DNA of 64,000 nucleotides. It comes from an uncultured Woeseiaceae bacterium (GTDB taxonomy: Bacteria; Pseudomonadota; Gammaproteobacteria; Steroidobacterales; Woeseiaceae). A program made the translations under genes and the position numbers. Numbering within the stretch: position 1 is the first letter of the stretch; each line of letters opens with the position of its first letter. This document shows positions 22,704 to 58,764 of the stretch, one piece after another. The stretch covers positions 37 through 64,036 of the forward strand of contig CAZHLE010000001.1 in the NCBI GenBank assembly GCA_964533065.1. The letters run 5' to 3'. The notes under the pieces were generated by a model. It worked only from the letters and a program-made list of their open reading frames with translations, was not told where the DNA came from and did not search any database.

Positions 22704-24602
22704 TCAGCGCAGGCTGGCCTGTAGCGTCTCCAGCTCGCCCCAGCGCTCGATGCGCGCTTCCAGCAGCGACTTTGCGTCCGCCAATTCGCAGAGCGTCGCC
22801 TGAACGATTTTCTGGTCCTGGGCATAGAAGCCGGGATCGGCGATCTGTTGTTCCACGCTGGCGACGGACGCCTCGATGCCGGCAATCTCGCCGGGCAATG
22901 CATCGAGTTCGCGTTGATCCTTGTAGCTGAGCTTGGTCGGTTTTTTCTGCGTGCGTTTTTCGGCAACAACGCGTTTGCGATTCCCGATTTCGAAGGGGTC
23001 ATCGGTGACCGCAAGGTTACGGCCCTGGCGTAACCAGTCGGAATAGCCTCCGACATATTCGCGCACGCTGCCGTCATCTTCAAATACGACGGTACTGGTC
23101 ACGACGTTGTCGAGGAACTCGCGGTCGTGGCTGACGACGATCAGGGTGCCACTGTATTCGGTGAGTCTGGCTTCGAGCACTTCCAGCGTTTCGACGTCGA
23201 GATCGTTGGTTGGCTCGTCCAGCACCAGCAAGTTCGCTGGCTGGGTAAACAACTTGGCGAGAATGACGCGATTGCGCTCGCCACCGGACAGCGCCTTGAC
23301 CGGCGTCATCGCGCGCTTCGGGCTGAACAGGAAACCATTGAGATAACCGACGATATGGCGTTCCTTGCCGTTGAGCTTGATGTAGGTGCGCCCGTCGCCG
23401 ACGTTGTAGGCAACCGACTTGTCGAGCTCCAGGTTTTGTCGCAACTGGTCGAAGTAGCCGATTTCCAAATTGGTGCCGTGCTTGAGCGTGCCTGCTTGCG
23501 GCTCCAGGTCGCCGAGCAACAGGCGCAATAGCGTGGTTTTGCCAACGCCGTTGTTGCCAATCAAACCGATGCGATCGCCACGCATGATCTTGATCGAGAA
23601 ATTCTCGATCAGCGGTTCATCCGCGTAGCGATACGATACGTTCTTGGCGCTGATCACCTTGCGACCGGATTGTTCGGCCTCTTCAATGTGAATGCGTGCC
23701 TGGCGTTCGCGTTTTACACGCTGCGCGCGCTCATCACGCATTTTCATGAGTGCGCGGGCGCGGCCCTCGTTGCGCGTTCGGCGGGCCTTGATGCCCTGCC
23801 GGATCCAGTCTTCTTCCTGCGCCAGTTTCTTGTCGAACCTGGCGTTGGCTGCGTCCTCGTCCTCGATCGATTTGTCCTTATTTTTCAAATAGTTATCGTA
23901 GTCTCCATGCCAGCTCGTGAGCTTGGCCCTGTCGATTTCAAGAATGCGCGTCGCGAGCCGCTGCAAGAATGCCCGATCGTGGGTGATGAACATGACGGCG
24001 CCCGGCCAGGCATAGAGTCGATCCTCGAGCCATTTGATGGTCGCGATATCGAGATGATTGGTCGGCTCGTCGAGCAATAGCAGCTCCGGCTTCTGTACCA
24101 TCGCCGCGGCAAGTGCGACACGCCGGCGCCATCCACCGGACAGCTCGTTCATCTTCTTCTCGGCGGGCAAATTCAACTCGGTGATGGTTTCTTCAACCCG
24201 TTGCTCCATGTGCCAGCCATCGTGCGCGTCAATTCGCGCGTGCAAGGCTTCGAGTTCGCGCATGCCGTCGCGATCGAGTTTGAGTTTCGACTGTTGCTCG
24301 TACTGCTGCAGCAATTTCTCGATTTCGCAGAGGCCCGCTCGAACCACGTCGCGAACACCGGTGTTCATCGCCTCGGGCAGTGCTTGGCTTAGCTGGCTCA
24401 CGATCAGGTTGCCGCTGCGCACGATCTCACCATGATCGGGTTCGAGCTCCCCCGTGATGAGTTTGAACGTCGTGGATTTCCCTGCGCCATTGCGCCCGAT
24501 CAGGCAAACGCGTTCGCCGGTTTCTATGGAGAATTCAGCCTGACTGAGGATTCTCAGCTCACCAAAGTCCAGCGATATTTCATCGAAGCGCAAAAGTGAC
24601 AT
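22704..24602 (-). CDS. uup: ABC-F family ATPase (Uup-like)
   Basis: Two ABC cassettes (GRNGAGKST / LSGGWRRR; GNNGVGKTT / LSGGERNR) and a C-terminal coiled coil; start taken at MSLLRFDE (residue 54 of the track ORF). Confidence 0.88.
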   Translation of the reverse strand: MSLLRFDEISLDFGELRILSQAEFSIETGERVCLIGRNGAGKSTTFKLITGELEPDHGEIVRSGNLIVSQLSQALPEAMNTGVRDVVRAGLCEIEKLLQQYEQQSKLKLDRDGMRELEALHARIDAHDGWHMEQRVEETITELNLPAEKKMNELSGGWRRRVALAAAMVQKPELLLLDEPTNHLDIATIKWLEDRLYAWPGAVMFITHDRAFLQRLATRILEIDRAKLTSWHGDYDNYLKNKDKSIEDEDAANARFDKKLAQEEDWIRQGIKARRTRNEGRARALMKMRDERAQRVKRERQARIHIEEAEQSGRKVISAKNVSYRYADEPLIENFSIKIMRGDRIGLIGNNGVGKTTLLRLLLGDLEPQAGTLKHGTNLEIGYFDQLRQNLELDKSVAYNVGDGRTYIKLNGKERHIVGYLNGFLFSPKRAMTPVKALSGGERNRVILAKLFTQPANLLVLDEPTNDLDVETLEVLEARLTEYSGTLIVVSHDREFLDNVVTSTVVFEDDGSVREYVGGYSDWLRQGRNLAVTDDPFEIGNRKRVVAEKRTQKKPTKLSYKDQRELDALPGEIAGIEASVASVEQQIADPGFYAQDQKIVQATLCELADAKSLLEARIERWGELETLQASLR

Positions 24603-24653
24603 ACAGTACGGTTTCTGGGGTCTGACCCTCTGCAAGCGTGGCAAGAGGCTACC

Positions 24654-24860
24654 ATGAGCAACGACAGATTGATTGAGATCGAAAGCAAGCTGGCGCACCA
24701 GGACCAGCTGTTGTTCGAGCTCAATGAAGTGGTCACCGAGCAGCAGGCGAGAATCATGCAACTCGAGCAGCTCGGCAAGTCACTGATTGACAGAGTACGC
24801 GCCCTCGGCGATGCCACGCCGGATAGCGCCCCGGTCGACGAGCGGCCACCGCATTATTAA
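24654..24860 (+). CDS. slyX: SlyX family protein
   Basis: RLIEIESKLAHQDQLLFELNEVV...ERPPHY matches SlyX. Confidence 0.85.
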   Translation: MSNDRLIEIESKLAHQDQLLFELNEVVTEQQARIMQLEQLGKSLIDRVRALGDATPDSAPVDERPPHY

Positions 24861-24923
24861 ACCCGAAATTCGGGTCGCAGCGTTACCATACACTACCGTT
24901 CAATGCCCCAAAGGGAGGCGTCA

Positions 24924-27900
24924 ATGAACACCTTACTCAGGCTGGTTTTGATCTTTCTGCTGCTACCCGCAATCGCTTTCGCGGACGATCCCTACGTGCC
25001 GGACGACTTGCAGGACTGGCAAGGGTGGGTGTTGCATGACAAGGAATACCGGGCTTGCCCGTTCTTTTTCGATCGTGGAGCCACGGAGCGTAATGACTAT
25101 GTCTGTGCCTGGCCCGGCCGCCTGGAACTTCGCGTTGATGGCAAGGGGGCTGCCTTCACCCAGTCGTGGTCCGTGTATGCGAAGGAACAGTGGTTGCGTC
25201 TGCCCGGCGATACCCATTACTGGCCGCACCAGGTCACGGCGAACGGCCGCAGCGTCGCAGTGGTATTGCGCGACAATGTGCCGAGCGTATTGCTGCCGCC
25301 CGGCGACTATCGCCTCAGCGGGTCTTTTGCCTGGGACGAGCGGCCGGGTGACCTGAGCCTGCCCTGGCAGACCGGCCTCTTGTCCCTGATCGTGGACGGG
25401 CAGGCGGTCGCAAGGCCGGATCGTACGAACCAGGGCGTATTCCTCGGCGAACGCCGCCAGGAGAGCCTGGCGCGCGATCATGTCAGCAGCAATGTGTATC
25501 GACTGGTGCAGGACGATGTGCCGACACGCCTGACGACACGCCTGCAAATCCAGGTCTCTGGCAGCGTGCGCGAGGAACTGTTCGGGCCGTTGTTGCCGGA
25601 AGGGTTCACACCGCTGACCCTGGACAGCCAGTTACCGGCGCGCCTCGAACCGGATGGCAAGTTGCGCGTGCAGGTACGGCCAGGGTCCTGGGACCTTGAA
25701 GTCACGGCGCGCGCCGCCAGCGTGCTCGATACGATCAGCCTGCGGGAGCCCGAGGCGAACCTGCCGGATGCCGAGATCTGGAGCTATGCGGCCAATGACA
25801 GCCTGCGCGTGACCGCGCCTGATGGCAGCGCACCCGTCGATCCGACGCAAGTCGGTACGCCGGGCGAATGGCAGCAACTGCCGGCATTCCGTCTCGCTGC
25901 CGGGGAGTCCCTGCAGATTAGCGAGCGCAGCCGCGGCATTGTGTCTGCTGACAACGATCTGCATTTATCGCGCAGCATGTGGTTGGCGTTTGATCGCTCG
26001 AATTTCATGGTTAAGGACCAGATCGCTGGCAGCATGCGCAGCGGTTGGCGTCTCGATATGTCGCCACCGTTTGGGCTGCTGACGGCGAGCGTTGATGACG
26101 AAAACCTGCTCATCACCGAGGGCGCTGCCAGCGGGCAGACCGGTGTGGAGCTGCGTTACCCGCAACTCGAGCTCGTGGCGGTGGCGCGATCGGAGCCTCT
26201 GGGCCCTTTGCCGGCAACCGGATGGGACACACGCTTCAGTTCGGTTGACACCGTGCTGCACCTGCCACCCGGGCATAAATTGCTGGCGGCACCGGGCGTC
26301 GATACGGCTGGAGGCAGCTGGGCCAGCCAATGGGAGTTGCTGGATTTTTTCCTGTTGCTGATTATCGCTATTGCGGCCTGGCGACTGTTCGGTCCCAAGG
26401 CAGGCGTGATTGCCCTGGTCACCCTCACCTTGAGTTTTCACGAACTGTCGGCTCCGACCTGGCTGTGGCTCAATCTCCTGATTGCGGTCGCCCTGTTGCG
26501 CGTGGCACCGGCCGGCAGATTGCGTCAGGGCGTGCTCGTCTATCAGCTCAGCAGCGCGGTGATACTCGTGCTGGTGCTGGTGCCGTTTATTGCCAGCCAG
26601 CTGCGCATCGCGATCTATCCGCAACTCGAGCCGCAATGGCCGGGGTATGGTGTCGCCTACGTTTCCGGCGTCGCCGCCGATGCCGATGATTTGCAACTAC
26701 CGGCCACAATGCCGGCACGCACTGAAAAAGAGCTGATGGAAGGCGTTACGCGGGAAAGAATGCTTTCGGCACCCGAAGAAATCGTCGTCACCGGGTCAAA
26801 AATCGCCCGGTCCACCGTATTTTCGCGCTACGCGCCCGATGCGATCGTGCAGGCCGGTGCCGGCATCCCGTCCTGGCAATGGAATACCTATCACTTAAGC
26901 TGGAGCGGTCCGGTCGACAGTGAGCAGACAATGCGGCTCATGATCCTGCCGCGCTGGCTGGTGTCGCTGTTGCGTTTTGCCGAGGTCGGTTTGCTGTTGT
27001 TGTTCGTCGCCGTGTTCGCCGCCGAAATCTTGAAGCGCGAAATCCGGCTTCCCGGGGGCTTGCGACTCGGCAATGCGGTCGCGAGCAGTCTCGCCATGAT
27101 CGGTCTGCTGACATTGTCGATGTTGCCGGAGCAGGCCGCACGCGCCGAACTGCCCGACGCCGAGATCCTGCAGGAGCTCGAAGCGAGGCTGCTGCGGGCG
27201 CCCGAGTGCGCGCCGCGATGCGCGGAGCTGGTGGCGGCCGACATTGTGATCCGCGAGCACAGCGTGCGCATGCGCTTGACGATCGATGCGCTCGACGATG
27301 TGGCAATGCCCCTGCCAGGCTCCGAGCGGGGCTGGCACGCCAGTGCGATCCTGCTGAATGGCAGCGCGGCCGGGCAGGTGACCCGCGGTCCGGGGCAAGC
27401 GCTCTGGCTGCGCCTGCTCGCGGGCCGGCATAGCGTGGAGCTGGAAGGCGCCATCCCCGCCGTGGACAGCCTTGAAATACCGTTCCCGACGCTGCCGAGG
27501 GTGGTGGAAGCAAGCGGCGATGGCTGGTTCGTCGCCGGCATCAAGGACCGCCGCCTGTTGTCCGGATCGCTGCAGCTGACCCGCCTGCAGACGGACACAG
27601 CAGCGGCGAATACCACGCGCTGGGAAAGCAGTCGCTTTCCGGCTTTCGTCGAGGTGTCACGAACCCTGCAACTGGATCTCGACTGGCGTGTTACGACGAC
27701 CGTCATCCGGGTTGCCCCGACGCAGGGCGCGCTGACGCTGGAGCTGCCGCTGTTGGCGGGCGAAGCCGTGATCAGCGACAACCTGAGCGTCCGCGATGGC
27801 AAGGTGCTGGTCAGCATGGCGCCGAACCAGAACGCCGTGTCCTGGGAGTCGAGCCTCGAACGCGTGTCGCCCCTGACCTTGCGCGCTGCGAACGACGCCG

Positions 27901-29009
27901 CATGGCGGGAACAGTGGGCGGTAGTCGCGAGCAATATCTGGCAGACAAGGTTCAGCGGTGTGCCCGAAAGTGACGTAGCCAGCCAGACTGACAATGCCAG
28001 GACTGCGGTTTTCTATCCGCGCGCGGGTGAAGAGCTGATCGTTGCCACGACACGCCCGGAAGGCAGTTCAGGTTCGACCCTGGCTTTCGATTCTGTCGAA
28101 CTGTATACGCAACACGGCGACCGCAGCAGCGACACGACCATGAGTCTCGCGTATCGCAGTACGCGTGGCATGCAACATGTCGTACAACTGCCGCGCGATG
28201 CCGAGGTCACCAATGTTGTCATCGACGGACTTACGCAATCACTGCGTGCCACCGACGGGCAGTTGATCCTGCCGGTTTTACCGGGAGAGCATTCGGTCCA
28301 GGTGGTATGGCGATCAGGCGGCGCAGTCGGTAGCCGTGTCGAGACACCGGCGGTCGACATCGGCGCGCCGGCGAGCAACATTTCCTTGCAGCTTGAGTTG
28401 CCGCGTGATCGCTGGCTGCTGGGTACCTCAGGTCCGCGCCTTGGGCCCGCAGTACTGTACTGGTCGGAACTCGCCGTGCTGCTGCTGGCCGCGATTATTC
28501 TTGGCAAAACCAGTCTCGCACCGCTGAAGACCTGGCAATGGCTGTTGCTCGGGCTTGGCTTCAGCACCTTCGACTGGCCCGCGTTCGGCTGGATCGTGCT
28601 CTGGTTGCTGGCGAGCGGTGCCCGTGCACGCTGGCACGGAACAGCGACCTGGTGGCGTTTCAATCTGGTGCAGCTCGCCGTGGTCGGCCTGACCGTGATC
28701 GCGTTGGGCTCGATCGTTTCCAGCCTGCCCGGTGGCCTGCTCGGCGTACCGGATATGAGCGTTACGGGCAATGAATCGTACGGCAATGCACTGCGCTGGT
28801 TTGCGGATCAAAGCACTGCCACATTGCCGCAGGCAGCTGCTTTTAGCGTGCCCCTGTGGGTCTACAAGGTTCTTATTCTCGGCTGGTCGCTGTGGCTGAG
28901 CTTTGCTTTGCTGCGCTGGCTGCCCTGGGTCTGGCGGAGTTTCTCGGCCCAGGGATACTGGCGCCCGCGGGCCGCGCGAGCCGCCCCAGGCACTGGTGGC
29001 AAGGAATGA
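24924..29009 (+). CDS. Large (1,361 aa) multi-pass membrane protein of unknown function, with signal peptide and duplicated periplasmic-type domains
   Basis: Strong SD AAGGGAGG 5 nt before ATG 24924; signal peptide MNTLLRLVLIFLLLPAIAFA; hydrophobic clusters at about 26334-26612, 26934-27128 and 28452-28937; no family recognised. Confidence 0.85.
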   Translation: MNTLLRLVLIFLLLPAIAFADDPYVPDDLQDWQGWVLHDKEYRACPFFFDRGATERNDYVCAWPGRLELRVDGKGAAFTQSWSVYAKEQWLRLPGDTHYWPHQVTANGRSVAVVLRDNVPSVLLPPGDYRLSGSFAWDERPGDLSLPWQTGLLSLIVDGQAVARPDRTNQGVFLGERRQESLARDHVSSNVYRLVQDDVPTRLTTRLQIQVSGSVREELFGPLLPEGFTPLTLDSQLPARLEPDGKLRVQVRPGSWDLEVTARAASVLDTISLREPEANLPDAEIWSYAANDSLRVTAPDGSAPVDPTQVGTPGEWQQLPAFRLAAGESLQISERSRGIVSADNDLHLSRSMWLAFDRSNFMVKDQIAGSMRSGWRLDMSPPFGLLTASVDDENLLITEGAASGQTGVELRYPQLELVAVARSEPLGPLPATGWDTRFSSVDTVLHLPPGHKLLAAPGVDTAGGSWASQWELLDFFLLLIIAIAAWRLFGPKAGVIALVTLTLSFHELSAPTWLWLNLLIAVALLRVAPAGRLRQGVLVYQLSSAVILVLVLVPFIASQLRIAIYPQLEPQWPGYGVAYVSGVAADADDLQLPATMPARTEKELMEGVTRERMLSAPEEIVVTGSKIARSTVFSRYAPDAIVQAGAGIPSWQWNTYHLSWSGPVDSEQTMRLMILPRWLVSLLRFAEVGLLLLFVAVFAAEILKREIRLPGGLRLGNAVASSLAMIGLLTLSMLPEQAARAELPDAEILQELEARLLRAPECAPRCAELVAADIVIREHSVRMRLTIDALDDVAMPLPGSERGWHASAILLNGSAAGQVTRGPGQALWLRLLAGRHSVELEGAIPAVDSLEIPFPTLPRVVEASGDGWFVAGIKDRRLLSGSLQLTRLQTDTAAANTTRWESSRFPAFVEVSRTLQLDLDWRVTTTVIRVAPTQGALTLELPLLAGEAVISDNLSVRDGKVLVSMAPNQNAVSWESSLERVSPLTLRAANDAAWREQWAVVASNIWQTRFSGVPESDVASQTDNARTAVFYPRAGEELIVATTRPEGSSGSTLAFDSVELYTQHGDRSSDTTMSLAYRSTRGMQHVVQLPRDAEVTNVVIDGLTQSLRATDGQLILPVLPGEHSVQVVWRSGGAVGSRVETPAVDIGAPASNISLQLELPRDRWLLGTSGPRLGPAVLYWSELAVLLLAAIILGKTSLAPLKTWQWLLLGLGFSTFDWPAFGWIVLWLLASGARARWHGTATWWRFNLVQLAVVGLTVIALGSIVSSLPGGLLGVPDMSVTGNESYGNALRWFADQSTATLPQAAAFSVPLWVYKVLILGWSLWLSFALLRWLPWVWRSFSAQGYWRPRAARAAPGTGGKE

Positions 29010-29620
29010 GCAGGGGCGCCATCACCTGGGCTGCGATTTTCCTTGGCGTGCTGCTGTGGTCGGCCATTGAGCCAAAGGACATGACCATATGGTGGCTCGA
29101 AACGGCACCGGCGATCGCCGGTGCCATCGTGCTTCTGTTCACGCGGCGGCGGTTTCTGCTGACGACGCTGACCTACGTGCTGGTCCTAGTGCACTGCATC
29201 ATCCTGATCGTCGGTGCGCATTACACCTACGCTGAGGTACCACTCGGTGACTGGGTGCGCGATACCTTCGATCAGTCGCGCAACAACTATGACAAGCTCG
29301 GCCACTTCGTGCAGGGTTTCGTACCGGCGATGATCGCGCGCGAAATCGTGGTGCGACTCAAGGTGTTCAATTTCGCCGGCTGGAGGAATTTTTTCATCGT
29401 CTGTTTTTGTCTCGCGGTGTCGGCATTCTATGAGCTCATCGAATGGTGGGTCGCAGTATTGGCCGACGAGTCGGCGGAAGCGTTCCTGTCGATGCAGGGC
29501 TACGTATGGGACACGCAGGCCGACATGTGGACGGCGCTGGTCGGGGCCGTGCTGGCATTGCTGTTACTGGCACGCTGGCAGGATCGGCAGCTGCGTGCGG
29601 CCGGCTATTTGCAGCCATAG
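29006..29620 (+). CDS. DUF2238 (YjdF-like) inner-membrane protein
   Basis: HYTYAEVPLGDW, NNYDKLGHFVQGFVPA and FYELIEWW motifs recalled for YjdF/DUF2238; ATGA overlap with the upstream gene. Confidence 0.7.
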   Translation: MSRGAITWAAIFLGVLLWSAIEPKDMTIWWLETAPAIAGAIVLLFTRRRFLLTTLTYVLVLVHCIILIVGAHYTYAEVPLGDWVRDTFDQSRNNYDKLGHFVQGFVPAMIAREIVVRLKVFNFAGWRNFFIVCFCLAVSAFYELIEWWVAVLADESAEAFLSMQGYVWDTQADMWTALVGAVLALLLLARWQDRQLRAAGYLQP

Positions 29621-30498
29621 TGAAAAAATGCGCCTACCTGATCATGCAGGACCCGGGTGATTACGTCACCGACTATGACCTGAGCTTCGCCGCCATGGCG
29701 ACGCTTGGCTGGCAGGTCGAAACAGTCTGCTGGCGCGACGCGTCGCTGGACTGGAATCACTTCGATGCCGTATACATCTGCACGCCCTGGGACTACCCGC
29801 AACACCTGCAGCAATTCCTCGCGGTGTTGCAGAGCATTGAGGAATCCAGGGCGGTGCTGGTGAACCCGTTGTCGCTGGTGCATTGGACACTGCAAAAGAC
29901 CTACCTTGCCGATCTGCAGCAACGCGGCGCCGATATCGTTCCGAGTCGCTGGTTTGACAACTTCGATGCGCAGAAAATCGCCGACTGCTTTCAGGCCTTC
30001 GACGTCGCGCAACTGATCATCAAGCCTACCGTTGGCGCGAATGCGCAGGATACCTACGTGCTGCAGGAGCCGATACCAGCGGCGATGCTTGCGATGCTGC
30101 GATCGACTTTTCAGCAGCGCAAATTTTTCGTGCAACCCTTCATCGACAATATCCAGGCCGAGGGCGAGTTCTCGCTGTTCTATTTCGGCGGTATATGCAG
30201 TCACGCAATACTGAAAGTTCCGAAGGCCGGCGACTTTCGCGTGCAGGAGGAACATGGCGGCGATATCCGCAGCGTGCAGCCGTCCGCCGCCTTGCTGGCG
30301 GCCGGACAACGTGTGCTGTCGCTGGTCAGGCCGCAGCCGGTCTATGTACGCGCCGATTTTGTGCGCGGAATCGATGGCCGTTTCCTGCTGATGGAGCTTG
30401 AGTTGATCGAACCGGCGTTGTACCTGCGCATGGATGCGGGCGCGGCGGATCGTTTTGCGGCGGCGTTCGATCAGTATGTCAGTGGAGAGATATCATGA
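29620..30498 (+). CDS. ATP-grasp domain protein (RimK / glutathione-synthetase-like fold)
   Basis: KKCAYLIMQD... N-terminus, IIKPTVGANA, FVQPFI, and a C-terminal RADFVR...LMELELIEP pattern; GTG 29620 overlaps the upstream stop (TAGTG); ATG 29644 is an alternative start. Confidence 0.65.
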   Translation: MKKCAYLIMQDPGDYVTDYDLSFAAMATLGWQVETVCWRDASLDWNHFDAVYICTPWDYPQHLQQFLAVLQSIEESRAVLVNPLSLVHWTLQKTYLADLQQRGADIVPSRWFDNFDAQKIADCFQAFDVAQLIIKPTVGANAQDTYVLQEPIPAAMLAMLRSTFQQRKFFVQPFIDNIQAEGEFSLFYFGGICSHAILKVPKAGDFRVQEEHGGDIRSVQPSAALLAAGQRVLSLVRPQPVYVRADFVRGIDGRFLLMELELIEPALYLRMDAGAADRFAAAFDQYVSGEIS

Positions 30499-31071
30499 AA
30501 CGAATCGTGCAGTTGATGGTATTGCTTGTGGCGGTGGCGGCGTGTACGGGCAAACCGGCGCCGGCGGTTCGCGTTCTGCTGCAGACCACGCTCGGTGACA
30601 TCAAGCTGGAGCTGTACCCGGCCGAGGCGCCGATCACAGTGGCCAACTTTTTGCAGCTCGTGGATGGCGGGTATCTAGACGGCGGGGCATTCTATCGCAC
30701 CGTCTCGCCAGACAACGACAACGGTTCGCCGCCCATATCCGTGATCCAGGGCGGCCTCGGCGATGCCGAAGGCTCGTTTGCACCGATCGCGCACGAGACG
30801 ACCGAGGCCACCGGGCTCGCGCATCGGGACGGCAGTATTTCCATGGCGCGCGGCGACGTCGGTACCGCATCGACCGAATTCTTCATTTGTATCGGCGACC
30901 AGCCCGCGCTCGATTTCGGCGGTACACGCAATGCCGACGGCCAGGGCTTCGCAGTGTTTGGTCGGGTTGTCGCCGGCATGGACGTTGTGCGTGCGATTCA
31001 CCAGTCACCAGCTGACACGCCTACGGACGAAGCCTATTTCCGGGACCAGATGCTGAACGAACCGGTGCGGT

Positions 31072-31094
<23 letters not shown>
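30495..31094 (+). CDS. Cyclophilin-type peptidyl-prolyl cis-trans isomerase, predicted lipoprotein
   Basis: Lipobox LVAVAAC; cyclophilin motifs ([21 protein letters not shown]...[23 protein letters not shown]). Confidence 0.85.
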
Positions 31095-33927
<2,833 letters not shown>

Positions 33928-50114: not shown

Positions 50115-50584
50115 TGCATATTCGATTGCTCGCTGTCGGCGATCGTCAGCCGGACTGGGTTGACGACGCGGCGAAAAACTACAGCGGGCGCCTGCCGCGC
50201 GAATGGAAATTTCGTATTGACTGTTTGCCAACTGCACGACGCGCGAAAGGCAGCAGTGCGCAGAACGCCGTGGAATCCGAGGGCGAACAGCTGCTGGCGC
50301 GAATCAAAAACGATGAGCAGGTCGTGCTGCTCGACGAAAAAGGCAGCCAGTATTCGAGCCAGGCCCTGGCAACGCGACTTTCCGAATGGCAGCAGGATGG
50401 CCGTGACTTGTGCTTTGTCATCGGTGGTCCGGACGGCGTATCAGCTACCTGCCGGCAACGCGCCGACATGGTGTGGTCGCTTTCCAGCCTGACGCTTCCA
50501 CATGGCCTTGCGCGTGTATTGTTGCTCGAGCAGCTGTACCGCGCCTGGTCACTGCAAAACGGACACCCTTATCATCGTGAGTGA
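50114..50584 (+). CDS. rlmH: 23S rRNA (pseudouridine1915-N3)-methyltransferase RlmH
   Basis: SPOUT family, FVIGGPDG...LPHGLARVLLLEQLYRA; GTG start. Confidence 0.93.
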   Translation: MHIRLLAVGDRQPDWVDDAAKNYSGRLPREWKFRIDCLPTARRAKGSSAQNAVESEGEQLLARIKNDEQVVLLDEKGSQYSSQALATRLSEWQQDGRDLCFVIGGPDGVSATCRQRADMVWSLSSLTLPHGLARVLLLEQLYRAWSLQNGHPYHRE

Positions 50585-51173
50585 TCACCGCCCCGTGCTG
50601 CACCTGGCGTCCGCATCGCCACGGCGCGCGGCGATCCTTGAGTCGTTGGGCATCATGTTTACCGCGGCCGGCGTGGATATCGATGAGCGGCGCCGCGGGG
50701 ACGAGCCGGCCGATGCCATGGTGTTGCGGCTGGCAACGGAAAAGGCGGTTGCGGCGCGGTCGAGCCGCGCCGCGCCCGTGCTGGCAGCGGATACCGTGGT
50801 GGTTGTCGATAGCGAAGTGCTGGGCAAGCCGCGGAACCAGGCGGATGCGCTCGCCATGCTGGCACGATTATCCGGTCGCAGCCATCAGGTCATGACCGGT
50901 GTGGCGCTGCATTGGGAGGGAAACCAGCGGACCGCGTTGTCTGTGACCGGGGTGACGTTTCGCGATATTGGTCCTGACGAGGCGCTCGCCTACTGGCGAA
51001 GTGGGGAGCCCTGTGACAAGGCCGGGGCGTATGCTATTCAGGGCCTCGGCGGCGTGTTCGTCGAGCGCATCAATGGCAGTTTTACCGGGGTGGTGGGGTT
51101 GCCGGTTTTTGAAACGGCCGCGCTGCTGGGCCTGGCTGGAATCAGCGTAGTAAAGGGTGTAGCTGGATCATGA
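50577..51173 (+). CDS. maf: Maf-like nucleoside-triphosphate pyrophosphatase
   Basis: LASASPRRAAIL, ADTVVV, KAGAYAIQG motifs; GTG start overlaps rlmH by 8 nt. Confidence 0.9.
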   Translation: MSDHRPVLHLASASPRRAAILESLGIMFTAAGVDIDERRRGDEPADAMVLRLATEKAVAARSSRAAPVLAADTVVVVDSEVLGKPRNQADALAMLARLSGRSHQVMTGVALHWEGNQRTALSVTGVTFRDIGPDEALAYWRSGEPCDKAGAYAIQGLGGVFVERINGSFTGVVGLPVFETAALLGLAGISVVKGVAGS

Positions 51174-52651
51174 GTGACGAATCTTACCGCGAGGAAATTC
51201 TCATCAATGTGACGCCGAGCGAGGTGCGTGCCGCTTTACTCGAGAATGGCGTGTTACAGGAAGTGCACATTGAGCGCGCGGCGCTGCGCGGCGTTATCGG
51301 CAACATCTACAAGGGCCGCGTAACGCGTGTCTTGCCGGGTATGCAGGCAGCATTCGTCGAAATAGGCCTGCAACGCACCGCATTCCTGCATGTTTCGGAT
51401 ATCGCCCGTCGCAATGGCAATCCTGCGGACGGACCGGTCGAACGCGATATTCGTGACGTGGTCAAAGAGGGCGATGAGCTGCTGGTCCAGGTTGCCAAGG
51501 ACCCGCTGGGTAACAAAGGTGCCCGGCTGACGACCTATATCACGCTGCCGTCGAGGCACCTGGTGTTGCTGCCATATGGTGACGCGGTTGGCGTCTCGGC
51601 GCGCATTGAGGAGGACGCCGAGCGCGAGCGTTTGCGCACGATGGTCGAGCGATTGCAGGCGGAACAGGGAATTTCGGGCGGCGTTATCGTCCGCACGGTT
51701 GCCGAAGGCGCCATGGAAGAGGCGCTGCAAGCCGATCTCAAGTACCTCTGCAGGTTGTGGGAGGTCGTTCAGCTCACGTGCAGCAAAGCCGGCGTAAAAA
51801 CCTTGGTACATGAGGATTTGTCACTGCCGCTGCGAGTGTTGCGAGACTTTGTGACGAGTGATGTGAAGAGCATTCTCGTCGATTCGGCCGAGGATATTGC
51901 CGCCATGCGCGAGTTTTCGGCTACGTTTTTGCCGGAAGTAGCAGCCATGCTTGAGCTGTACCAGCGCCGCCGCCCGATATTTGATCTGCACTCGATCGAA
52001 GATGAGATCAAGCGCTCGCTGGATCGTAGCATCCCGCTCAAATCAGGTGGCCGTATTGTATTTGACCAGACCGAGGCGATGACCACGGTTGATGTCAATA
52101 CGGGTGGTTATGTGGGGCATCGCAATCTCGAGGAGACTATTTATCGCACCAACCTGGAAGCTGCGGTTGCCATTGCCCGGCAACTTCGCCTGCGCAATCT
52201 CGGCGGCATCATTATTATTGACTTTATCGACATGGAAGAAGCTGAGCATCGCGACAACGTGCTGGCGCTGTTGCATCAGTCGCTGAAAAAAGACCATGCG
52301 CGCCACCAGTTTTCGCCGATATCACCGCTCGGACTGGTTGAAATGACGCGCAAACGCACTCGCGAGAGCCTGCAGCACATACTTTGCGAGGATTGCCCGG
52401 GCTGTAATGGCCGCGGTTTCGTGCTCAAAGCGGAAACGGTCTGTTTCGAGGTGTTTCGCGAGGTCATTCGACAGTCACGGCAATTTGATTTCGAGACGGC
52501 GATGGTGCTGGCGCACCAGGACGTCATTGAAATGCTGCTCGACGAGCATGCGCCGAACCTGGCCAAGCTGGAGCAACAGACCGGAAAGTCGATCCGGCTG
52601 CAGCCCGAATCGCTGTACCTGCAAGACCAGTTTGATGTTGTCTTGATGTGA
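51170..52651 (+). CDS. rng: Ribonuclease G
   Basis: S1 domain (GNIYKGRVTRVLPGMQAAFVEIG), RNase E/G catalytic core (IVFDQTEAMTTVDVNTG). Confidence 0.95.
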   Translation: MSDESYREEILINVTPSEVRAALLENGVLQEVHIERAALRGVIGNIYKGRVTRVLPGMQAAFVEIGLQRTAFLHVSDIARRNGNPADGPVERDIRDVVKEGDELLVQVAKDPLGNKGARLTTYITLPSRHLVLLPYGDAVGVSARIEEDAERERLRTMVERLQAEQGISGGVIVRTVAEGAMEEALQADLKYLCRLWEVVQLTCSKAGVKTLVHEDLSLPLRVLRDFVTSDVKSILVDSAEDIAAMREFSATFLPEVAAMLELYQRRRPIFDLHSIEDEIKRSLDRSIPLKSGGRIVFDQTEAMTTVDVNTGGYVGHRNLEETIYRTNLEAAVAIARQLRLRNLGGIIIIDFIDMEEAEHRDNVLALLHQSLKKDHARHQFSPISPLGLVEMTRKRTRESLQHILCEDCPGCNGRGFVLKAETVCFEVFREVIRQSRQFDFETAMVLAHQDVIEMLLDEHAPNLAKLEQQTGKSIRLQPESLYLQDQFDVVLM

Positions 52652-55600
52652 TGCGCCTGATACTGCGGCGGCTACTCAAGATCCTGGCGTATGCGGGCGC
52701 CTGCGTGGTCATTTTACTGGCCATTGCGCTGGGTTTGTTTCGCCTGTTCTTGCCACGCCTGCCCGAGTACCAGGAGAACATCAAGTCCTGGGCCAGTGCG
52801 GCCATTGGGTTGGAAGTTCAGTTTTCCGACATGAACGCGCGCTGGGGCCTGCGCGGTCCCGAGGTGGAGTTTTATCGTGCCGAGTTGATTTCGCCGGACA
52901 CGGAGAAACGTATCGTTGCCGCGCAGAAAGTCAGTGTCGGCATCGGGCTGACGCGTTTCCTGACGGATCGCAAAGCCGTCGTCGATCGGGTCGTTGTTAC
53001 CGAAACGACAGTCGAAGTCCGGCAACTCGAGAATGGCGAATGGTGGATCCAGGGCGGCCCGCCCGACCAGTTGCTGCCAAAGCGCTCAGTGAATGCGGCC
53101 CCGGGAGATGGTGCGAGGATCGAGATTATTGGCGAAGATCTGATCCTGCTTTTTTTACAGCCGGGCGATGAGCGGCCGCGCGAGTTCCTGATTCCACGGC
53201 TGCTGATCAGCCGGGACAGTGTGCGCATCGCGATTGACGCCCAGGTTGAATTACCAAGCGACCTCGGACAGCGCCTGATGGTCACCGCGACGCGTCTTTT
53301 GGAATCGGGCGAGGGACAAGAGGAATGGCAACTGGGCGTTGAAGCGAACGAGCTGGAGCTGGCCGGTGTTTCGATGCTGCACACGAGCGAGGCAGCCCGG
53401 TTTGATTCCGGTCGAGGTGACATACGCCTGTCCCTGCGGGTGTCGGCGAATGGTGTCAGCCGGGCCGTCGCTGACGTAGATTTAGACGAAGTCGGCGCCT
53501 CTGGCGCCACCCCGTTTTCCTTTGATGGCCGGTTTGAGTATTTGCGCGACGACGACAGCTGGCTGGTCGCGGCCAATGATTTTCGGCTGGAAACGACCAA
53601 CGGGTTCTGGCCACCGACGGACTTGCGCGTCGAGGCCGGTGCCACTGCGGATGGCAGCATGAGCATGCTCGATATTGAGGCATCGTACCTGAAGCTCGAC
53701 GATATCCAGGTGCTGCGCCCGTGGTTGCCGGCAGCACAACAAGCAATGCTGACCGACTTTGCACCGGACGGCATTGTGCGCAACCTCAAGGCAGTCCTCA
53801 GTGATCTCGATACCGGGCAGCCACGATTTGATGTGGCGGCCGAGTTTGATCGCATCGGTATTGCGGCCAGCGAAAAGTTTCCCGGTGTCAGAGGTTTCTC
53901 TGGCGTGTTGCGATCGGATGCCACAGGCGGACTATTTGAACTGCGATCGACAGACTTGTCGATCGCGGTGCCGCAGTACCTGGCAGAGGCTATCCCGCTG
54001 GATCAGCTGCGGGGAACCCTGTTCTGGCGCCGTGGTGGCAATCGCACAACTTTGTTGTCGGACAGCATCGTTTTCAGTAATGCGGATTTTCATTTCGCAA
54101 CCAGCGTTGAATTGACGCTGGAAGACGGTGATCGACTGCCGGTTGTCGATCTGGCGACGATCTGGAGCGTCAACGACATTTCAGTGGCGAAAAAATACAT
54201 CCCCTATATTCCGCGAATCCCGCGAACCAGCGAGTGGTTCCAGGAAGGCCTGCTGGCCGGCAGTATTCCGCGCGGCACGGTCCGCTTGTATGGCCCGATG
54301 GACAAATGGCCATTCGACGGCGGCGAGGGCCGTTTCCTGGTTGAGGCGAACTTGCGCGATGCACGGATTTTGTACCAGCGACGCTGGCCGGTCGCGACGG
54401 TACCCGACCTCGATATGGTGATCGACAACATGCGCCTGTACACCGAGCGCAACATCATCATCAATGAAGGCAATGAAATTACCAACGCGAAAATCGAAAT
54501 CGGTGATTTTCGTGCGCCAGTTCTTGAGGTCAGTGGTGCCTCGGCCGGGCCGTTGGACTCCATGCGGGCGTTGCTGGCGAACAGCCCGCTGGGTACCGAC
54601 ATATTCAAAGGAAATCTCGATCGGATTTCAGCAAGCGGTGACGGCGCATTTGACCTCAGTCTGCGCGTGCCGATTCGCGACTGGCAGAGTTTCGAATTCA
54701 GCGCCCGTGTTGAAGCTAATGACGCAAGCCTCAAGATGCAGGGCTTTCCCGCGCCGCTCACCGACCTCAGTGGCGTCGTGACCGTGGGGCGCGAGGACAT
54801 CAGCAGCGAATCATTGAGCGGCATGTTCCTCGGTAGCCCGGTCAGCATTGAGCTGCGCCCGGCTACCGAAAGCATGCCCGATTACCGCATTATCGGAACG
54901 GCGAACGGCACCGCCACGGCGGAGGCACTGGTGAATGAGCTGGGCTTGCCGCTGGCGGGTTCCCTGACAGGGGCGACGGAATTCGAGGCGCGCATGTTGT
55001 TCGCGCGTGGTGAACAGGAGCTGCGGAAACCATTCACTATCGAGTTATCGAGCACGCTGGCTGGTATCGGCATCGATCTGCCGCAGCCTTTTAACAAACC
55101 GGCCGAAGATGCGTGGCCGCTAACTGCCAGCATCGAAATGCCCTTTGCAAGCGAGGTGATTACAACCCACGGGGGCGTGCAGGATTTCCTGTCATGGCGG
55201 CTCGCATTTTCCAGGGAACAGGATCGCTGGGGTCTCGACCGTGGTGTCGTAGCTTTCGGTGCCGAAGCCGCAACGGAAGCGGAGACACGTGGCCTGCATT
55301 TTCGGGGTCACGCGAAGCAGGTAAGGATGCAGGACTGGTTTGATCGCATGAAGCAGTCTGACTCTGACACGGGCATTGGTGATCGCATACGTTCGGCCAA
55401 CATGCTGATTGACGAGTTTTACCTGTTTGGTCAGCGCATCGTCGGTCATCGCGTGCGCTTCGATCGCAGCGCCGAGGAGTGGCTGGTACAGTTCACGGGG
55501 CCCGAGATTACGGGGTCCGCCTATGTCCCTTACGATTTCACCGTCGGCCGACCGCTGGTCATCGACATGCAAAGACTGGTGTTGCCAGGCGACGAGGACG

Positions 55601-56499
55601 ATGCGGGTCAGCCGGCGTCGATTCTTGATCCGCGGCAGCTGCCGCCGATCACGATCAAGGCCGGAGAGTTCGCGCTCGGGACACGCTTCCTCGGGGCGGT
55701 AAGCGCCACTTTGCAGCGCACCGCGGATGGCCTTGAAACAACCGATCTGGTTGCCAGGGACAAGTCATTCGAAATCATTGGCGATGGCCGCTGGGTCGTT
55801 GACGAGGCGGACCCGGCGGGTAGCCACAGTTACCTGCGCGCCACGCTGACCAGCACCGATGTCGGTGCGACCATGACGCGGCTGGGTTACGACCCGGGCA
55901 TTGTCTCGGACGATCTCACCATGAGCTTCAACCTGGACTGGTCCGGTGGGCCGCGCAACGATTTCCGCGATTCTCTCAACGGCGAGGCGACCGTTCGCAT
56001 TGGCTCCGGGCAGCTAAGCGACGTGGAACCGGGTGCGGGGCGCATGATGGGCCTGATGAGCGTGGTGGCGCTGCCGCGGCGCCTGTCGCTGGATTTTAGC
56101 GATGTCTTCGGCAAGGGGTTTGGATTTGACCAGATCCGTGGCCGGTTCGCCCTGCAGAACGGCCAGGCGTTCACCTGTGACCTGTCGCTGGAGGGGCCCG
56201 CTGCCCAGATTGGCGTGGTCGGTCGCGCCGGCCTTGTTGATCGGGACTATGACCAAACCGCGATGGTTGGCGCCAATTTCGGCAATGCATTGCCGGTCGT
56301 TGGTGCGGTGCTTGGCGGACCGACAGGTGCCGCCGTAATGCTTATTTTCTCGCAAATATTCAAAAAGCCGCTGGCTGAAGTCAGCCAGGTCTACTACGGT
56401 ATCAGCGGTTCCTGGGACGAGCCGGTCATCGAATCGGTGACGGCGGCTGAATTCGCCTTGCAGGGCGTGCGGTCCGGTTGCATCAACGAGGCGGAATAG
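52651..56499 (+). CDS. yhdP: YhdP family (AsmA-like, DUF3971) envelope protein
   Basis: About 1,280 aa with an N-terminal TM anchor; position after rng as in E. coli; ATG 52651 overlaps the rng stop, and GTG 52648 is an alternative start. Confidence 0.85.
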   Translation: MRLILRRLLKILAYAGACVVILLAIALGLFRLFLPRLPEYQENIKSWASAAIGLEVQFSDMNARWGLRGPEVEFYRAELISPDTEKRIVAAQKVSVGIGLTRFLTDRKAVVDRVVVTETTVEVRQLENGEWWIQGGPPDQLLPKRSVNAAPGDGARIEIIGEDLILLFLQPGDERPREFLIPRLLISRDSVRIAIDAQVELPSDLGQRLMVTATRLLESGEGQEEWQLGVEANELELAGVSMLHTSEAARFDSGRGDIRLSLRVSANGVSRAVADVDLDEVGASGATPFSFDGRFEYLRDDDSWLVAANDFRLETTNGFWPPTDLRVEAGATADGSMSMLDIEASYLKLDDIQVLRPWLPAAQQAMLTDFAPDGIVRNLKAVLSDLDTGQPRFDVAAEFDRIGIAASEKFPGVRGFSGVLRSDATGGLFELRSTDLSIAVPQYLAEAIPLDQLRGTLFWRRGGNRTTLLSDSIVFSNADFHFATSVELTLEDGDRLPVVDLATIWSVNDISVAKKYIPYIPRIPRTSEWFQEGLLAGSIPRGTVRLYGPMDKWPFDGGEGRFLVEANLRDARILYQRRWPVATVPDLDMVIDNMRLYTERNIIINEGNEITNAKIEIGDFRAPVLEVSGASAGPLDSMRALLANSPLGTDIFKGNLDRISASGDGAFDLSLRVPIRDWQSFEFSARVEANDASLKMQGFPAPLTDLSGVVTVGREDISSESLSGMFLGSPVSIELRPATESMPDYRIIGTANGTATAEALVNELGLPLAGSLTGATEFEARMLFARGEQELRKPFTIELSSTLAGIGIDLPQPFNKPAEDAWPLTASIEMPFASEVITTHGGVQDFLSWRLAFSREQDRWGLDRGVVAFGAEAATEAETRGLHFRGHAKQVRMQDWFDRMKQSDSDTGIGDRIRSANMLIDEFYLFGQRIVGHRVRFDRSAEEWLVQFTGPEITGSAYVPYDFTVGRPLVIDMQRLVLPGDEDDAGQPASILDPRQLPPITIKAGEFALGTRFLGAVSATLQRTADGLETTDLVARDKSFEIIGDGRWVVDEADPAGSHSYLRATLTSTDVGATMTRLGYDPGIVSDDLTMSFNLDWSGGPRNDFRDSLNGEATVRIGSGQLSDVEPGAGRMMGLMSVVALPRRLSLDFSDVFGKGFGFDQIRGRFALQNGQAFTCDLSLEGPAAQIGVVGRAGLVDRDYDQTAMVGANFGNALPVVGAVLGGPTGAAVMLIFSQIFKKPLAEVSQVYYGISGSWDEPVIESVTAAEFALQGVRSGCINEAE

Positions 56500-56500
56500 T

Positions 56501-57316
56501 ATGCGTGTCGCAGCAATCCAAATGAACAGTGGCGCGAATGTGGACGCCAATCTGAAACTTGCGGACCAGCTGCTGGCAGACGCCGCTGCCGACGGTGTGA
56601 GGCTTGCGGTGTTGCCGGAAAATTTCGCATTAATGGCGCTAAAGAGCCGCGACAAGGCAGCGCATGCCGAAGCGCCCGGACGTGGTCCGATTCAGGACTT
56701 CCTGGCCGACGCATCGCGCCGCCTTGGTCTGTGGATTGTGGCGGGCAGCATGCCGCTGGCTTCGCCGGAGGCCGAACGCGTGTACGGTGCTTGCCCCGTC
56801 TACGATGATGACGGCCGGCAACGTGCCTGCTATCTGAAAATGCACCTGTTTGACGTGAAGTTGCCGGATCTCGAGGAGTCCTACCAGGAGTCATGGTCGA
56901 TGTATCCGGGCGATGCGCTGGCCGCCGTCGATACACCGATCGGCAAAATCGGGCTGAGCATTTGCTACGACGTCCGCTTCCCCGAACTGTTTCGGCGCCT
57001 GGTCGACCAGGGCGCAACGGTGTTCACTGTTCCTGCGGCATTTACAAAGGTCACGGGGCTGGCACATTGGCATGTCTTGCTGCGCGCCAGGGCCATCGAA
57101 AACCTGGCGTTCGTGATTGCTGCCGGGCAGTATGGTGAACACCCGGACAAGCGATCGACGTTCGGGCATTCGATGATAATCGATCCCTGGGGACGGATTC
57201 TGGCCGAGCAAGCCGAGGGTAACTGTCACGTCGCGGCCGAGGTCGACCCGCAGTTACCGGCGAAGATCAGGGCAGAATTCCCGGCCCTGGCTAACCGGCG
57301 CCTGGGAAAAACTTGA
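56501..57316 (+). CDS. Carbon-nitrogen hydrolase family protein (Nit/YafV-like)
   Basis: AVLPENF, catalytic region [11 protein letters not shown], and the K of KMHLFD. Confidence 0.88.
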
Positions 57317-58764
57317 ACACTGACGATCAAAGCACGATTGACGCGGTTTTCGCGCATACGCTCGAACCGGCGGGGCTGGACGAGCGGGTATTGAGCCGAA
57401 CGCTTGGCTCGATGATGCAAAGCGGAGTCGACTATGCCGATCTGTACTTCCAGGTAAGCCGCCAGGAAAGCTGGTCAGTCGAGGACGGTATTATTCGCGA
57501 GGGCAACTACAGCCTCGACAAGGGTGTCGGCGTACGTGCCGTCAGTGGCGAAAAGACCGGCTTCGCCTATTCGGACGAGCTGCTCCTGCCGGCGCTGCAG
57601 CAGGCAGCGTCCGCCGCACGCGCCATCGCTAGGACAGGTGAATCGAAAGCCGTGCAGGCGTGGCGCCGGGATAACTCGCCACCCATGTATCCGCTCATCG
57701 ATCCGATCAGCAGTATCTCGGACCAGCAGAAAACAGGGATGCTCGCGACTCTCGAGCAGGCTACTCGCGCCCTCGACCCACGCGTCGAGCAGGTCATTAT
57801 CAGCCTGAGCAGTTGCCACGAGTTGTTGCTGGTTGCGGCATCCGACGGCACGCTTGCCGCCGATGCGCGGCCGCTCGTGCGCCTGAACGTAAGCGTGATA
57901 CTCGAGAAGAACGGTCGCCGCGAACAGGGTTATGCCGGCGGTGGCGCGAGAACCGACCTGAATTATTTCCTGTCGGGCGAGATACCGTTGCAGTATGCGC
58001 GCGAAGCCGTGCGCCAGGCGGCGGTGCAAATGGAGGCGATCGCGGCCCCGGCGGGAACCATGCCGGTCGTACTTGGACCCGGCTGGCCAGGCATCCTGCT
58101 GCATGAGGCGGTCGGGCACGGCCTGGAAGGTGACTTTAATCGCAAAGGTACGTCAGCATTCTCCGGTCGCGTCGGGCAACGCGTGGCATCGAAAGAGTGC
58201 ACCATCGTTGATGATGGCACTTTGCCGAATCGTCGCGGCTCCCTGGCGATCGACGACGAAGGCACACCGGGTCAGTACACGGTACTGGTCGAGAACGGAA
58301 TTCTGCGCGGCTATATGCAGGACAAGCTTAACGCCCGCCTGATGGGCGTCGCTCCGACCGGCAATGGGCGGCGGGAATCCTTTGCGCACATGCCGATGCC
58401 ACGCATGACCAATACCTACATGCTGGCCGGTCCGCATGTGCCCGAGGAAATCATCGCCTCCGTCCGCAAGGGCCTCTACGCGCCGAATTTCGGTGGCGGG
58501 CAGGTGGATATCACTTCCGGCAAATTCGTGTTTTCCGCCAGCGAGGCGTACCTGATCGAGAACGGCAGGATCACCGCGCCGGTGAAAGGCGCAATGCTGA
58601 TAGGCGATGGGCCGGAAGCACTGCGCCGTATCTCAATGATCGGCAATAACCTCGAGCTCGACACGGGCGTTGGTACCTGCGGCAAGGAAGGGCAGTCCGT
58701 GCCGGTTGGCGTCGGCCAGCCGACGTTGAAGATTGACGAAATCACAGTTGGCGGCACGGCTTGA
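57313..58764 (+). CDS. tldD: Metalloprotease TldD
   Basis: [32 protein letters not shown] motifs; TTG start. Confidence 0.95.

Follow-up and report, generated by a model that had tools for sequence, protein, structure and literature searches.

We analysed a 64,000-nucleotide (nt) stretch of contig CAZHLE010000001.1 from an uncultured Woeseiaceae bacterium (hereafter the window), in which four same-strand genes, g1–g4, had been proposed from the sequence to make up a single envelope system. Our results indicate that these genes are probably a compact, lineage-specific, co-directional string lying in a conserved Woeseiaceae neighbourhood (uup, slyX ... uvrA). The first of them, g1, encodes a protein of 1,361 amino acids (aa) that belongs to no family described by sequence, and that represents a large, widespread, stand-alone and internally duplicated family of Gram-negative inner-membrane proteins; we hold these organisational claims, taken jointly, with good confidence. 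When a role for g1 as a platform in the periplasm is added to them, we estimate the probability of the whole explanation at roughly 55 %. All four open reading frames (ORFs) were confirmed on the + strand at the positions where they had been predicted:

24924..29009, + strand: g1, ORF of 1,361 aa, inner-membrane protein
29006..29620, + strand: g2, ORF of 204 aa, predicted DUF2238 polytopic membrane protein
29620..30498, + strand: g3, ORF of 292 aa with a GTG start, cytoplasmic DcsG-like ATP-grasp protein
30495..31094, + strand: g4, ORF of 199 aa, cyclophilin-type peptidyl-prolyl isomerase with a lipoprotein signal

An exhaustive HMMER scan, using aa 1-1200 of g1 as the query, returned 3,463 clusters (at 50 % identity) with E ≤ 1e-3 and 1,716 with E ≤ 1e-30. 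Nearly all members of the best 150 clusters measure 1,330-1,410 aa, with full-length alignments at 34-48 % identity, and a relative of g1 is encoded in at least 577 GTDB species from many orders. Every name that we retrieved for this family, including those of ten distant cluster representatives, was 'hypothetical protein'. The original prediction had been unable to place the protein in any characterised family, and this was borne out: g1 matched nothing in Pfam, NCBIfam or the PDB sequences, even when four sub-regions were searched against Pfam at E ≤ 10, and neither phmmer nor a diverse 28-sequence profile yielded a match among PDB sequences, oligosaccharyltransferase (OST) subunits included. 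Likewise, no Pfam domain was detected in six unusually long distant members, and hence no fused domain was found.

Gene neighbourhoods of g1 relatives

We compared 82 loci carrying relatives of g1, two of which were obtained by exact-protein look-up (L001 and L002) and 80 by scanning one genome per GTDB species with a 10-sequence alignment as the query. The six-frame ORFs of every locus were searched with g2, g3, g4, slyX, uup and uvrA, and the search was repeated using phmmer --max at E ≤ 1. In the Woeseiaceae or a close clade (~22 loci, g1 identity ~48-68 %) synteny extends over the whole arrangement uup-slyX-g1 ... uvrA. Of these loci, 21 have g2 directly after g1, the gap ranging from -4 to +53 nt but being mostly -4 to +3, and the tight junction is kept down to ~55 % g1 identity; g1 is present without g2 in L024. 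A g3 gene occurs in ~15 of the clade's loci and adjoins g2 in only four (L005, L011, L012 and L034), the remaining ~11 having a secreted alpha/beta-hydrolase gene or more between the two, with a separation of up to 4.5 kb in L009. The cyclophilin gene g4 was seen once in the clade, in L005 (g1 identity 62 %), which is also the only one of the 82 loci where the order g1-g2-g3-g4-uvrA recurs. The ATP-grasp and cyclophilin genes are variable passengers of one intergenic island; the hydrolase is gone from the lineage of the window, which has acquired the cyclophilin.

Outside the Woeseiaceae clade, neither g2 nor g3 was found within 10 kb of g1 in ~58 loci, even with phmmer --max at E ≤ 1. These loci derive from Steroidobacteraceae, Rhodanobacteraceae (Dyella, Rhodanobacter, Dokdonella), Aeromonadaceae (Zobellella, Oceanisphaera), Lentisalinibacter, Methylococcales, Thiotrichales, Myxococcota, Desulfuromonadales and Syntrophobacterales, and Desulfobacterota are among the lineages represented. 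Neighbours of g1 are heterogeneous and lineage-specific there: a Pfam search of 46 close same-strand proteins returned PycTM (6), PrmC (5), Peptidase_M1 (4), Peptidase_S15, OpuAC and DUF6165 (3 each), as well as DUF885 and cyclophilin (2 each). Clustering of the neighbours in search of a universal operon partner likewise produced only lineage-specific ones, and no STT3/PglB-like gene was present among the annotated neighbours in the 82 loci, a search that covered neighbourhoods and not whole genomes. In at least 12 loci outside the clade both genes flanking g1 lie on the opposite strand, such that g1 looks monocistronic. Because g2 and g3 are confined to a syntenic clade and the rest of the loci lack them, g1 has no conserved partner and the genes do not constitute a four-component system. 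The original prediction had named a failure of the four genes to co-occur elsewhere as a refutation, and apart from L005 this failure is what was observed; what survives of the proposed coupling is the g1-g2 pair in the 21 Woeseiaceae-clade loci, g3 and g4 not being consistently coupled.

Several further arrangements were observed around g1 relatives. The commonest order in Woeseiaceae is g1-DUF2238-secreted alpha/beta-hydrolase-ATP-grasp (L001 14715-15482, L002 14732-15382, L006-L020), in which the hydrolase carries a lipase-type GHSLGG motif and matches Abhydrolase_6 and Palm_thioest weakly. In L018 (14658-16277) and L024 (14176-16161) a stop-to-stop ORF of 540-660 aa that contains the DcsG-like ATP-grasp protein runs seemingly in frame through the upstream alpha/beta-hydrolase gene, and may be either a hydrolase/ATP-grasp fusion or an artefact of start calling. 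A different cyclophilin, of 342 aa, immediately follows g1 in L021 and L022, where g2 and g3 are both missing. Secreted peptidase genes stand beside g1 on the same strand, upstream in L056, L059, L073, L074 and L077 and on both sides in L038 and L063; these are M1 aminopeptidases in Rhodanobacteraceae, and DUF885 and S15 X-Pro dipeptidyl-peptidases in Steroidobacteraceae. A theme of peptide or proline handling (M1, S15, S9 and DUF885, together with the cyclophilins of the window, L005, L021 and L022) was considered and rejected as too thin, as it involves only two to three lineages. A gene of ~185 aa for a PycTM protein (PF18967, Pycsar-effector-like transmembrane) lies 3-72 nt upstream of g1 on the same strand in Rhodanobacteraceae such as Dokdonella, Rudaea and their relatives:

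L037, 9341-9925, same strand as g1: PycTM gene
L044, 9356-9925, same strand as g1: PycTM gene
L047, 9304-9861, same strand as g1: PycTM gene
L052, 9374-9928, same strand as g1: PycTM gene
L057, 9310-9861, same strand as g1: PycTM gene

The part identities proposed for g2, g3 and g4 stood up to profile searches, and all three are new members of known families with poorly defined functions. For g2, the match to DUF2238 (Pfam PF09997, 1.7e-56) scored 190.4 bits against a cut-off of 26.4 and spanned model positions 2-140 of 140; Escherichia coli YjdF, itself a DUF2238 protein, shares this full-length Pfam match and is of like size (209 aa versus 204 aa). With the NCBIfam YjdF model NF007369, g2 scored 194.8 bits, which is below the equivalog cut-off of 353 and makes it a family member, not a YjdF orthologue. 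DUF2238 corresponds to the 'Wok' family of the lipocone superfamily, whose members have been assigned, by computational prediction, an action at the outer leaflet on lipid head groups linked through phosphate (PMC12419801, where conserved lipocone active-site residues are also given); the gene contexts published for Wok, with a synaptojanin-like phosphatase or carotenoid genes (PMC12419801), are absent around g2.

The g3 product aligned over aa 14-284 with the D-cycloserine synthetase DcsG (PDB 6jil, E=3.4e-34), and PF27100 (DcsG_N) is precomputed on all of its homologues. Its score with the NCBIfam DcsG model NF058666 (1.1e-51, 175.7 bits) is far under the equivalog cut-off of 360, and it is best described, as judged from these profile scores, as a member of the DcsG subfamily of ATP-grasp proteins only and not as DcsG itself. 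No dcs biosynthetic genes lie near g3, whose neighbours are DUF2238, cyclophilin and uvrA, nor is there a dcs cluster beside its relatives in L001 and L002, which adjoin the alpha/beta-hydrolase and uvrA; a literature search on DcsG homologues returned nothing relevant. Lastly, g4 is a cyclophilin (Pfam PF00160, 4.4e-28, 99 bits against a cut-off of 21.7) with PpiA-type proteins as its best PDB matches (1e-17). It falls under the PpiA equivalog cut-off (81.8 versus 308), and although the cyclophilin domain is common to both, PpiA carries a plain signal peptide whereas the translation of g4 has a lipobox, LVAVAA/C (the slash marking the cleavage site), that fits [LVI][ASTVI][GAS]C and follows a hydrophobic h-region.

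Predicted architecture and fold of g1

The original prediction had described a signal peptide, two soluble regions and three hydrophobic clusters in g1, and this layout matches the hydrophobicity profile, in which the soluble regions measure ~420-440 aa each. Two AlphaFold 2 (AF2) models were built, for aa 1-740 (predicted local distance difference test, pLDDT, 72; predicted template modelling score, pTM, 0.43) and for aa 661-1361 (pLDDT 68, pTM 0.31). Together these data suggest the following segments, in which TM denotes transmembrane:

24924..24983, + strand: signal peptide, aa 1-20, predicted cleavage AFA/DD (hydrophobicity; AF2 helix aa 2-16)
25086..26318, + strand: periplasmic all-beta domain A, aa ~55-465 (AF2 strands aa 62-455, pLDDT mostly 80-90)
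26337..26615, + strand: TM bundle A, four helices, aa 472-564 (AF2 and hydrophobicity)
26616..27119, + strand: linker (conservation profile, AF2)
27201..28433, + strand: periplasmic all-beta domain B, aa ~760-1170 (AF2 strands aa 767-1158)
28461..28946, + strand: TM bundle B, loop and last TM helix (AF2, hydrophobicity)

Domain A is preceded by a conserved Cys pair (C45/C61), and the AF2 helices of bundle A comprise aa 472-489, 491-504, 512-527 and 532-564. The linker begins with a low-complexity, variable and disordered segment (aa 565-630), continues as a highly conserved loop predicted to be periplasmic (aa 635-675, RYAPxAIVQAGxGIPSWxW) and then forms a TM hairpin (aa 677-702 and 719-732) that would bring the chain back to the periplasm, the sixth TM helix ending in a signal-peptidase-like ARA/E motif. 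Domain B contains a conserved CxxxC motif (C762/C766). It is followed by the four helices of bundle B (aa 1180-1272), a second conserved periplasmic loop (aa 1273-1310, GxPDMxVxGNxSYGN...WFAD), the final TM helix (aa 1311-1341) and an Arg-rich cytoplasmic C-terminal tail. When the N-terminal domain is set as periplasmic, all of the short Lys/Arg-rich loops become cytoplasmic, and the topology is thus self-consistent: a signal peptide plus 11 TM helices, N-out/C-in, with the beta-domains, the conserved loops and the Cys pairs all predicted to be periplasmic.

Using hhalign, a profile of aa 20-570 aligned with one of aa 740-1361 such that aa 60-557 fell on aa 765-1262, with a probability of 97.4 % (E=1e-11). 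With the beta-domains alone the comparison gave E=6.8e-11 over 378 columns, and the reversed-sequence control gave E=0.16. A direct BLASTP comparison of the soluble halves fell short of significance (E=0.096), and the relationship was exposed only by profile-profile comparison. These alignments show that the predicted beta-domains A and B are an internal duplication.

When the modelled halves were compared with the PDB by Foldseek, the best matches of both were to Ost1/ribophorin I (RPN1). The N-terminal half matched 8agb_E (2e-8), 6ezn_A, 7oci_A, 6c26_1 and 8pn9_E, and the C-terminal half 8b6l_O, 6s7t_E (~3e-6), 6c26_1, 8pn9_E and 7oci_A; alignments for both halves covered 350-410 columns with a probability of 1.0 and E-values of 2e-8 to 1e-5. 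As in Ost1/RPN1, each half of g1 is modelled as an elongated all-beta, non-cytoplasmic region followed by membrane helices. Unlike Ost1, which has one such module and one TM helix, g1 would have two modules and 11 TM helices, and whereas Ost1 is an accessory subunit of the eukaryotic OST, no STT3/PglB-type partner is encoded near g1. Second-tier matches of both halves were to the N-terminal beta-domains of M1 aminopeptidases and leukotriene A4 hydrolase (LTA4H), over ~150-170 columns and, for the N-terminal half, with a root-mean-square deviation (rmsd) of ~5 Å. This likeness concerns one sub-domain only and is considered generic; g1 is without the catalytic HExxH domain. A literature search for a bacterial ribophorin-like protein and for an Ost1/LTA4H comparison found nothing relevant. 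YidC-like and MacB/FtsX-like architectures, which had also been considered for g1, were rejected, as there was no Pfam match and neither was among the Foldseek top 50.

Candidate roles of g1

The mechanism that we propose begins with the tandem duplication of one module, which would have comprised a signal or anchor helix, a ~410-aa periplasmic double beta-sandwich of the Ost1/ribophorin-I fold type, and a membrane part consisting of a 4-helix bundle, then a conserved periplasmic loop and one further helix. The resulting protein would be autonomous, with two beta-sandwich arms of ribophorin-I-like fold reaching into the periplasm, and would serve as a non-catalytic, membrane-anchored binding or scaffold platform. 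Ribophorin I has a substrate-holding role. By analogy with this, the ligand of g1 might be an envelope polymer (a glycan or lipid-linked intermediate) or an unfolded secreted polypeptide. Within Woeseiaceae, the translational coupling to g2, a predicted lipid head-group transferase of the DUF2238/Wok kind at the outer leaflet, may point to a partnership particular to that clade. The role of g1 as an autonomous, periplasm-facing platform is much less firm than the organisational claims, and taken by itself we regard it as possible but doubtful.

A number of observations weigh against the explanation as a whole. The TM bundles alone show no significant similarity to each other (hhalign E=0.046). 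The template modelling scores (TM-scores) of the Ost1/RPN1 matches are low, at 0.13-0.25, with an rmsd of 14-21 Å, and no PF04597/Ost1 sequence signal was detected in g1, whether in Pfam searches of both beta-domains at E ≤ 10 or with a 28-member profile against the PDB. Given the low TM-scores, the likeness to ribophorin I depends on aligning 3Di states locally within a beta-sandwich architecture that is common, and it may reflect analogy; we therefore regard it as a fold-level resemblance between models, with homology undemonstrated. A binding or scaffold function is itself purely inferred, and catalysis would be just as plausible a use of the invariant Asp, Glu and Arg residues. Moreover, genes in the related loci were called by a home-made heuristic based on GC content at third codon positions (GC3), meaning that some of the monocistronic calls may be wrong. 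Finally, the tight g1-g2 junction at ~55 % identity hints at something beyond inertia, and the notion that g1 acts on its own may thus fail within the Woeseiaceae clade.

This last point is the starting place for an alternative that we consider improbable, though it remains the strongest of those weighed, namely that g1 and g2 form a two-gene unit in Woeseiaceae, in which g1 would be the platform in the periplasm, or the substrate presenter, for a DUF2238/Wok lipid head-group enzyme. The near-constant spacing of the two genes speaks for it, as does the predicted action of Wok proteins at the outer leaflet (PMC12419801), which is the same side as the g1 domains. Given the commonest gene order of the clade, the secreted alpha/beta-hydrolase and ATP-grasp genes may extend the unit, and a lipid-remodelling island in Woeseiaceae is conceivable from gene content. 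However, the flanking genes are equally conserved and are syntenic wherever g1 and g2 are coupled, so that the pairing is inseparable from inherited synteny. Furthermore, g2 is missing beside g1 in L024, the pairing appears in no other lineage among the 82 loci, and the function of Wok is itself only a prediction.

Slightly less favoured again, and in our judgement unlikely, is that g1 is an enzyme (resembling the glycosyltransferase C fold, GT-C, or modifying a polymer by way of acidic residues located where the membrane meets the periplasm) or a transporter (a channel or flippase made of two TM bundles). The 11 predicted TM helices, the invariant polar residues in or near the membrane (Q1250, D1295, R1234 and D460), the two strongly conserved periplasmic loops adjoining the bundles, and the very strong conservation of the whole 1,350 aa would all suit such a function. 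In an alignment of 144 cluster representatives, 130 positions are ≥93 % conserved; apart from the two Cys pairs these are chiefly W, G, P, R, D and E, and invariant residues include G645, W651, G662 and P663 as well as Q1250, P1276, D1295 and W1321/1324/1332. No His, Ser or Lys is invariant in this alignment, and the pattern is more in keeping with a role in structure or ligand binding than with a classical hydrolase or transferase, although acid-base catalysis would also be compatible with it. In addition, sequence searches of Pfam, NCBIfam and the PDB matched g1 to no enzyme or transporter family, neither half has a transporter or GT-C protein in its Foldseek top 50, and bundles of four helices offer little room for a transport path.

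The reading of the original prediction, in which two membrane proteins serve a single pathway together with a ligase that uses ATP and a foldase of the periplasm, as one envelope module, is now very improbable. It drew on the three stop/start overlaps and the one strong Shine-Dalgarno (SD) sequence described below, and is helped by the identical gene order in L005 and, weakly, by a consensus scan that found no sigma-70-like promoter and no convincing terminator inside the string. Against it, all four genes occur together in only one of ~21 Woeseiaceae-clade loci, with g4 missing from nearly all; g3 stands apart from g2 in most of the loci that carry it and belongs to a separate family of very large size (6,380 matches among 8,000 candidates scored); and the ~58 loci of other lineages dispense with g2 and g3 altogether. 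The possibility that the 1,361-aa ORF is an artefact, through fusion of two adjacent genes or mis-assembly, is suggested by the signal-peptide-like helix ending in ARA/E with which its second half opens, and is excluded by an uninterrupted ORF of the same length, aligned full length in >140 cluster representatives and 80 genomes of many orders, together with a g1 GC3 (0.75) like that of neighbouring genes.

The string in the window and the wider importance of g1

The remaining features of the string and its borders are as follows:

22704..24761, - strand: ABC-F ATPase gene, uup-like, divergent from slyX
24654..24860, + strand: slyX (68 aa), upstream same-strand neighbour, 63 nt from g1 (ORF; context)
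24911..24918, + strand: SD sequence AAGGGAGG, 5 nt ahead of the g1 start codon (read from the sequence)
31072..33927, - strand: uvrA, convergent with g4, downstream border of the string (ORF)

The strong SD sequence attributed to the first gene was confirmed as AAGGGAGG ahead of ATG 24924. A further in-frame ATG upstream, at 24903, has no SD sequence, and homologues begin at the equivalent of 24924. The three predicted overlaps could be read directly: ATGA between g1 and g2 (ATG 29006-29008 over TGA 29007-29009), TAGTG between g2 and g3 (TAG 29618-29620 over GTG 29620-29622) and ATGA between g3 and g4 (ATG 30495-30497 over TGA 30496-30498). The second of these depends on the GTG start of g3, which is ambiguous with an in-frame ATG at 29644; many database homologues of g3 are annotated from the equivalent of the latter (284 aa versus 292-296 aa), and were g3 to start there the TAGTG overlap with g2 would be gone. 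Stop/start overlaps are frequent in GC-rich operons, and here they reflect compact co-directional packing and are not evidence of shared function. The GC3 of the four genes (0.69-0.75) equals that of the remainder of the window, indicating that they are native.

Upstream, slyX and g1 may be co-transcribed. A hairpin between them was not significant (z=-1.0); PF04102 (SlyX) is found in the equivalent place in L001 and L002, and slyX lies upstream of g1 in most Woeseiaceae-clade loci. Downstream, the 3' ends of g4 and uvrA overlap by 23 nt (31072-31094), leaving no space for a terminator between these convergent genes, and UvrA Pfam domains occur at the equivalent position in L001 and L002. In relatives without g4, g3 and uvrA overlap by ~78 nt (L001 17456-17533), again with no space for a terminator. 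An Rfam search of 24000-31500 returned no element. Antisense ORFs of 243-367 aa lie within g1 (25965-26696, 26891-27994 and 28013-28786, all on the - strand); as the + frame is conserved in all relatives, we regard them as GC-rich shadow ORFs and not as genes. A second co-directional run of closely spaced ORFs is present elsewhere in the window (50502-58764, + strand) and contains an ORF of 1,283 aa (52648-56499).

Taken as an operon, the string is ordinary: lineage-specific packing has placed members of three families, known but poorly characterised, downstream of a single large gene. It thus amounts to less than the system that was first proposed, yet is still worthwhile as a protein-family lead. 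That lead is the g1 family, with thousands of clusters in Gammaproteobacteria, Myxococcota and Desulfobacterota and without a model, a name or a solved relative. On the structural models, g1 may be seen as a duplicated form, not described before, of a membrane module that resembles ribophorin I, with ribophorin I/Ost1 as its closest known analogue at the level of fold only. The family is experimentally tractable, as its carriers include the cultivable Rhodanobacter, Dyella, Dokdonella, Zobellella, Oceanisphaera and Lentisalinibacter, and characterising it together with its ligand would close a considerable gap in the catalogue of envelope proteins of diderms. It is an unlikely but consequential prospect that the family is a true prokaryotic relative of ribophorin I/Ost1, or at least an unrecognised, widespread class of bacterial inner-membrane machinery. 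On this view envelope glycans, lipid-linked intermediates or nascent secreted polypeptides would be held at the surface of the membrane by a duplicated double beta-sandwich platform in the periplasm, working with a Wok lipid head-group enzyme in Woeseiaceae. If this were true, g1 would be a bacterial component resembling the OST accessory subunits, and would bear on the origin of those subunits in eukaryotes.

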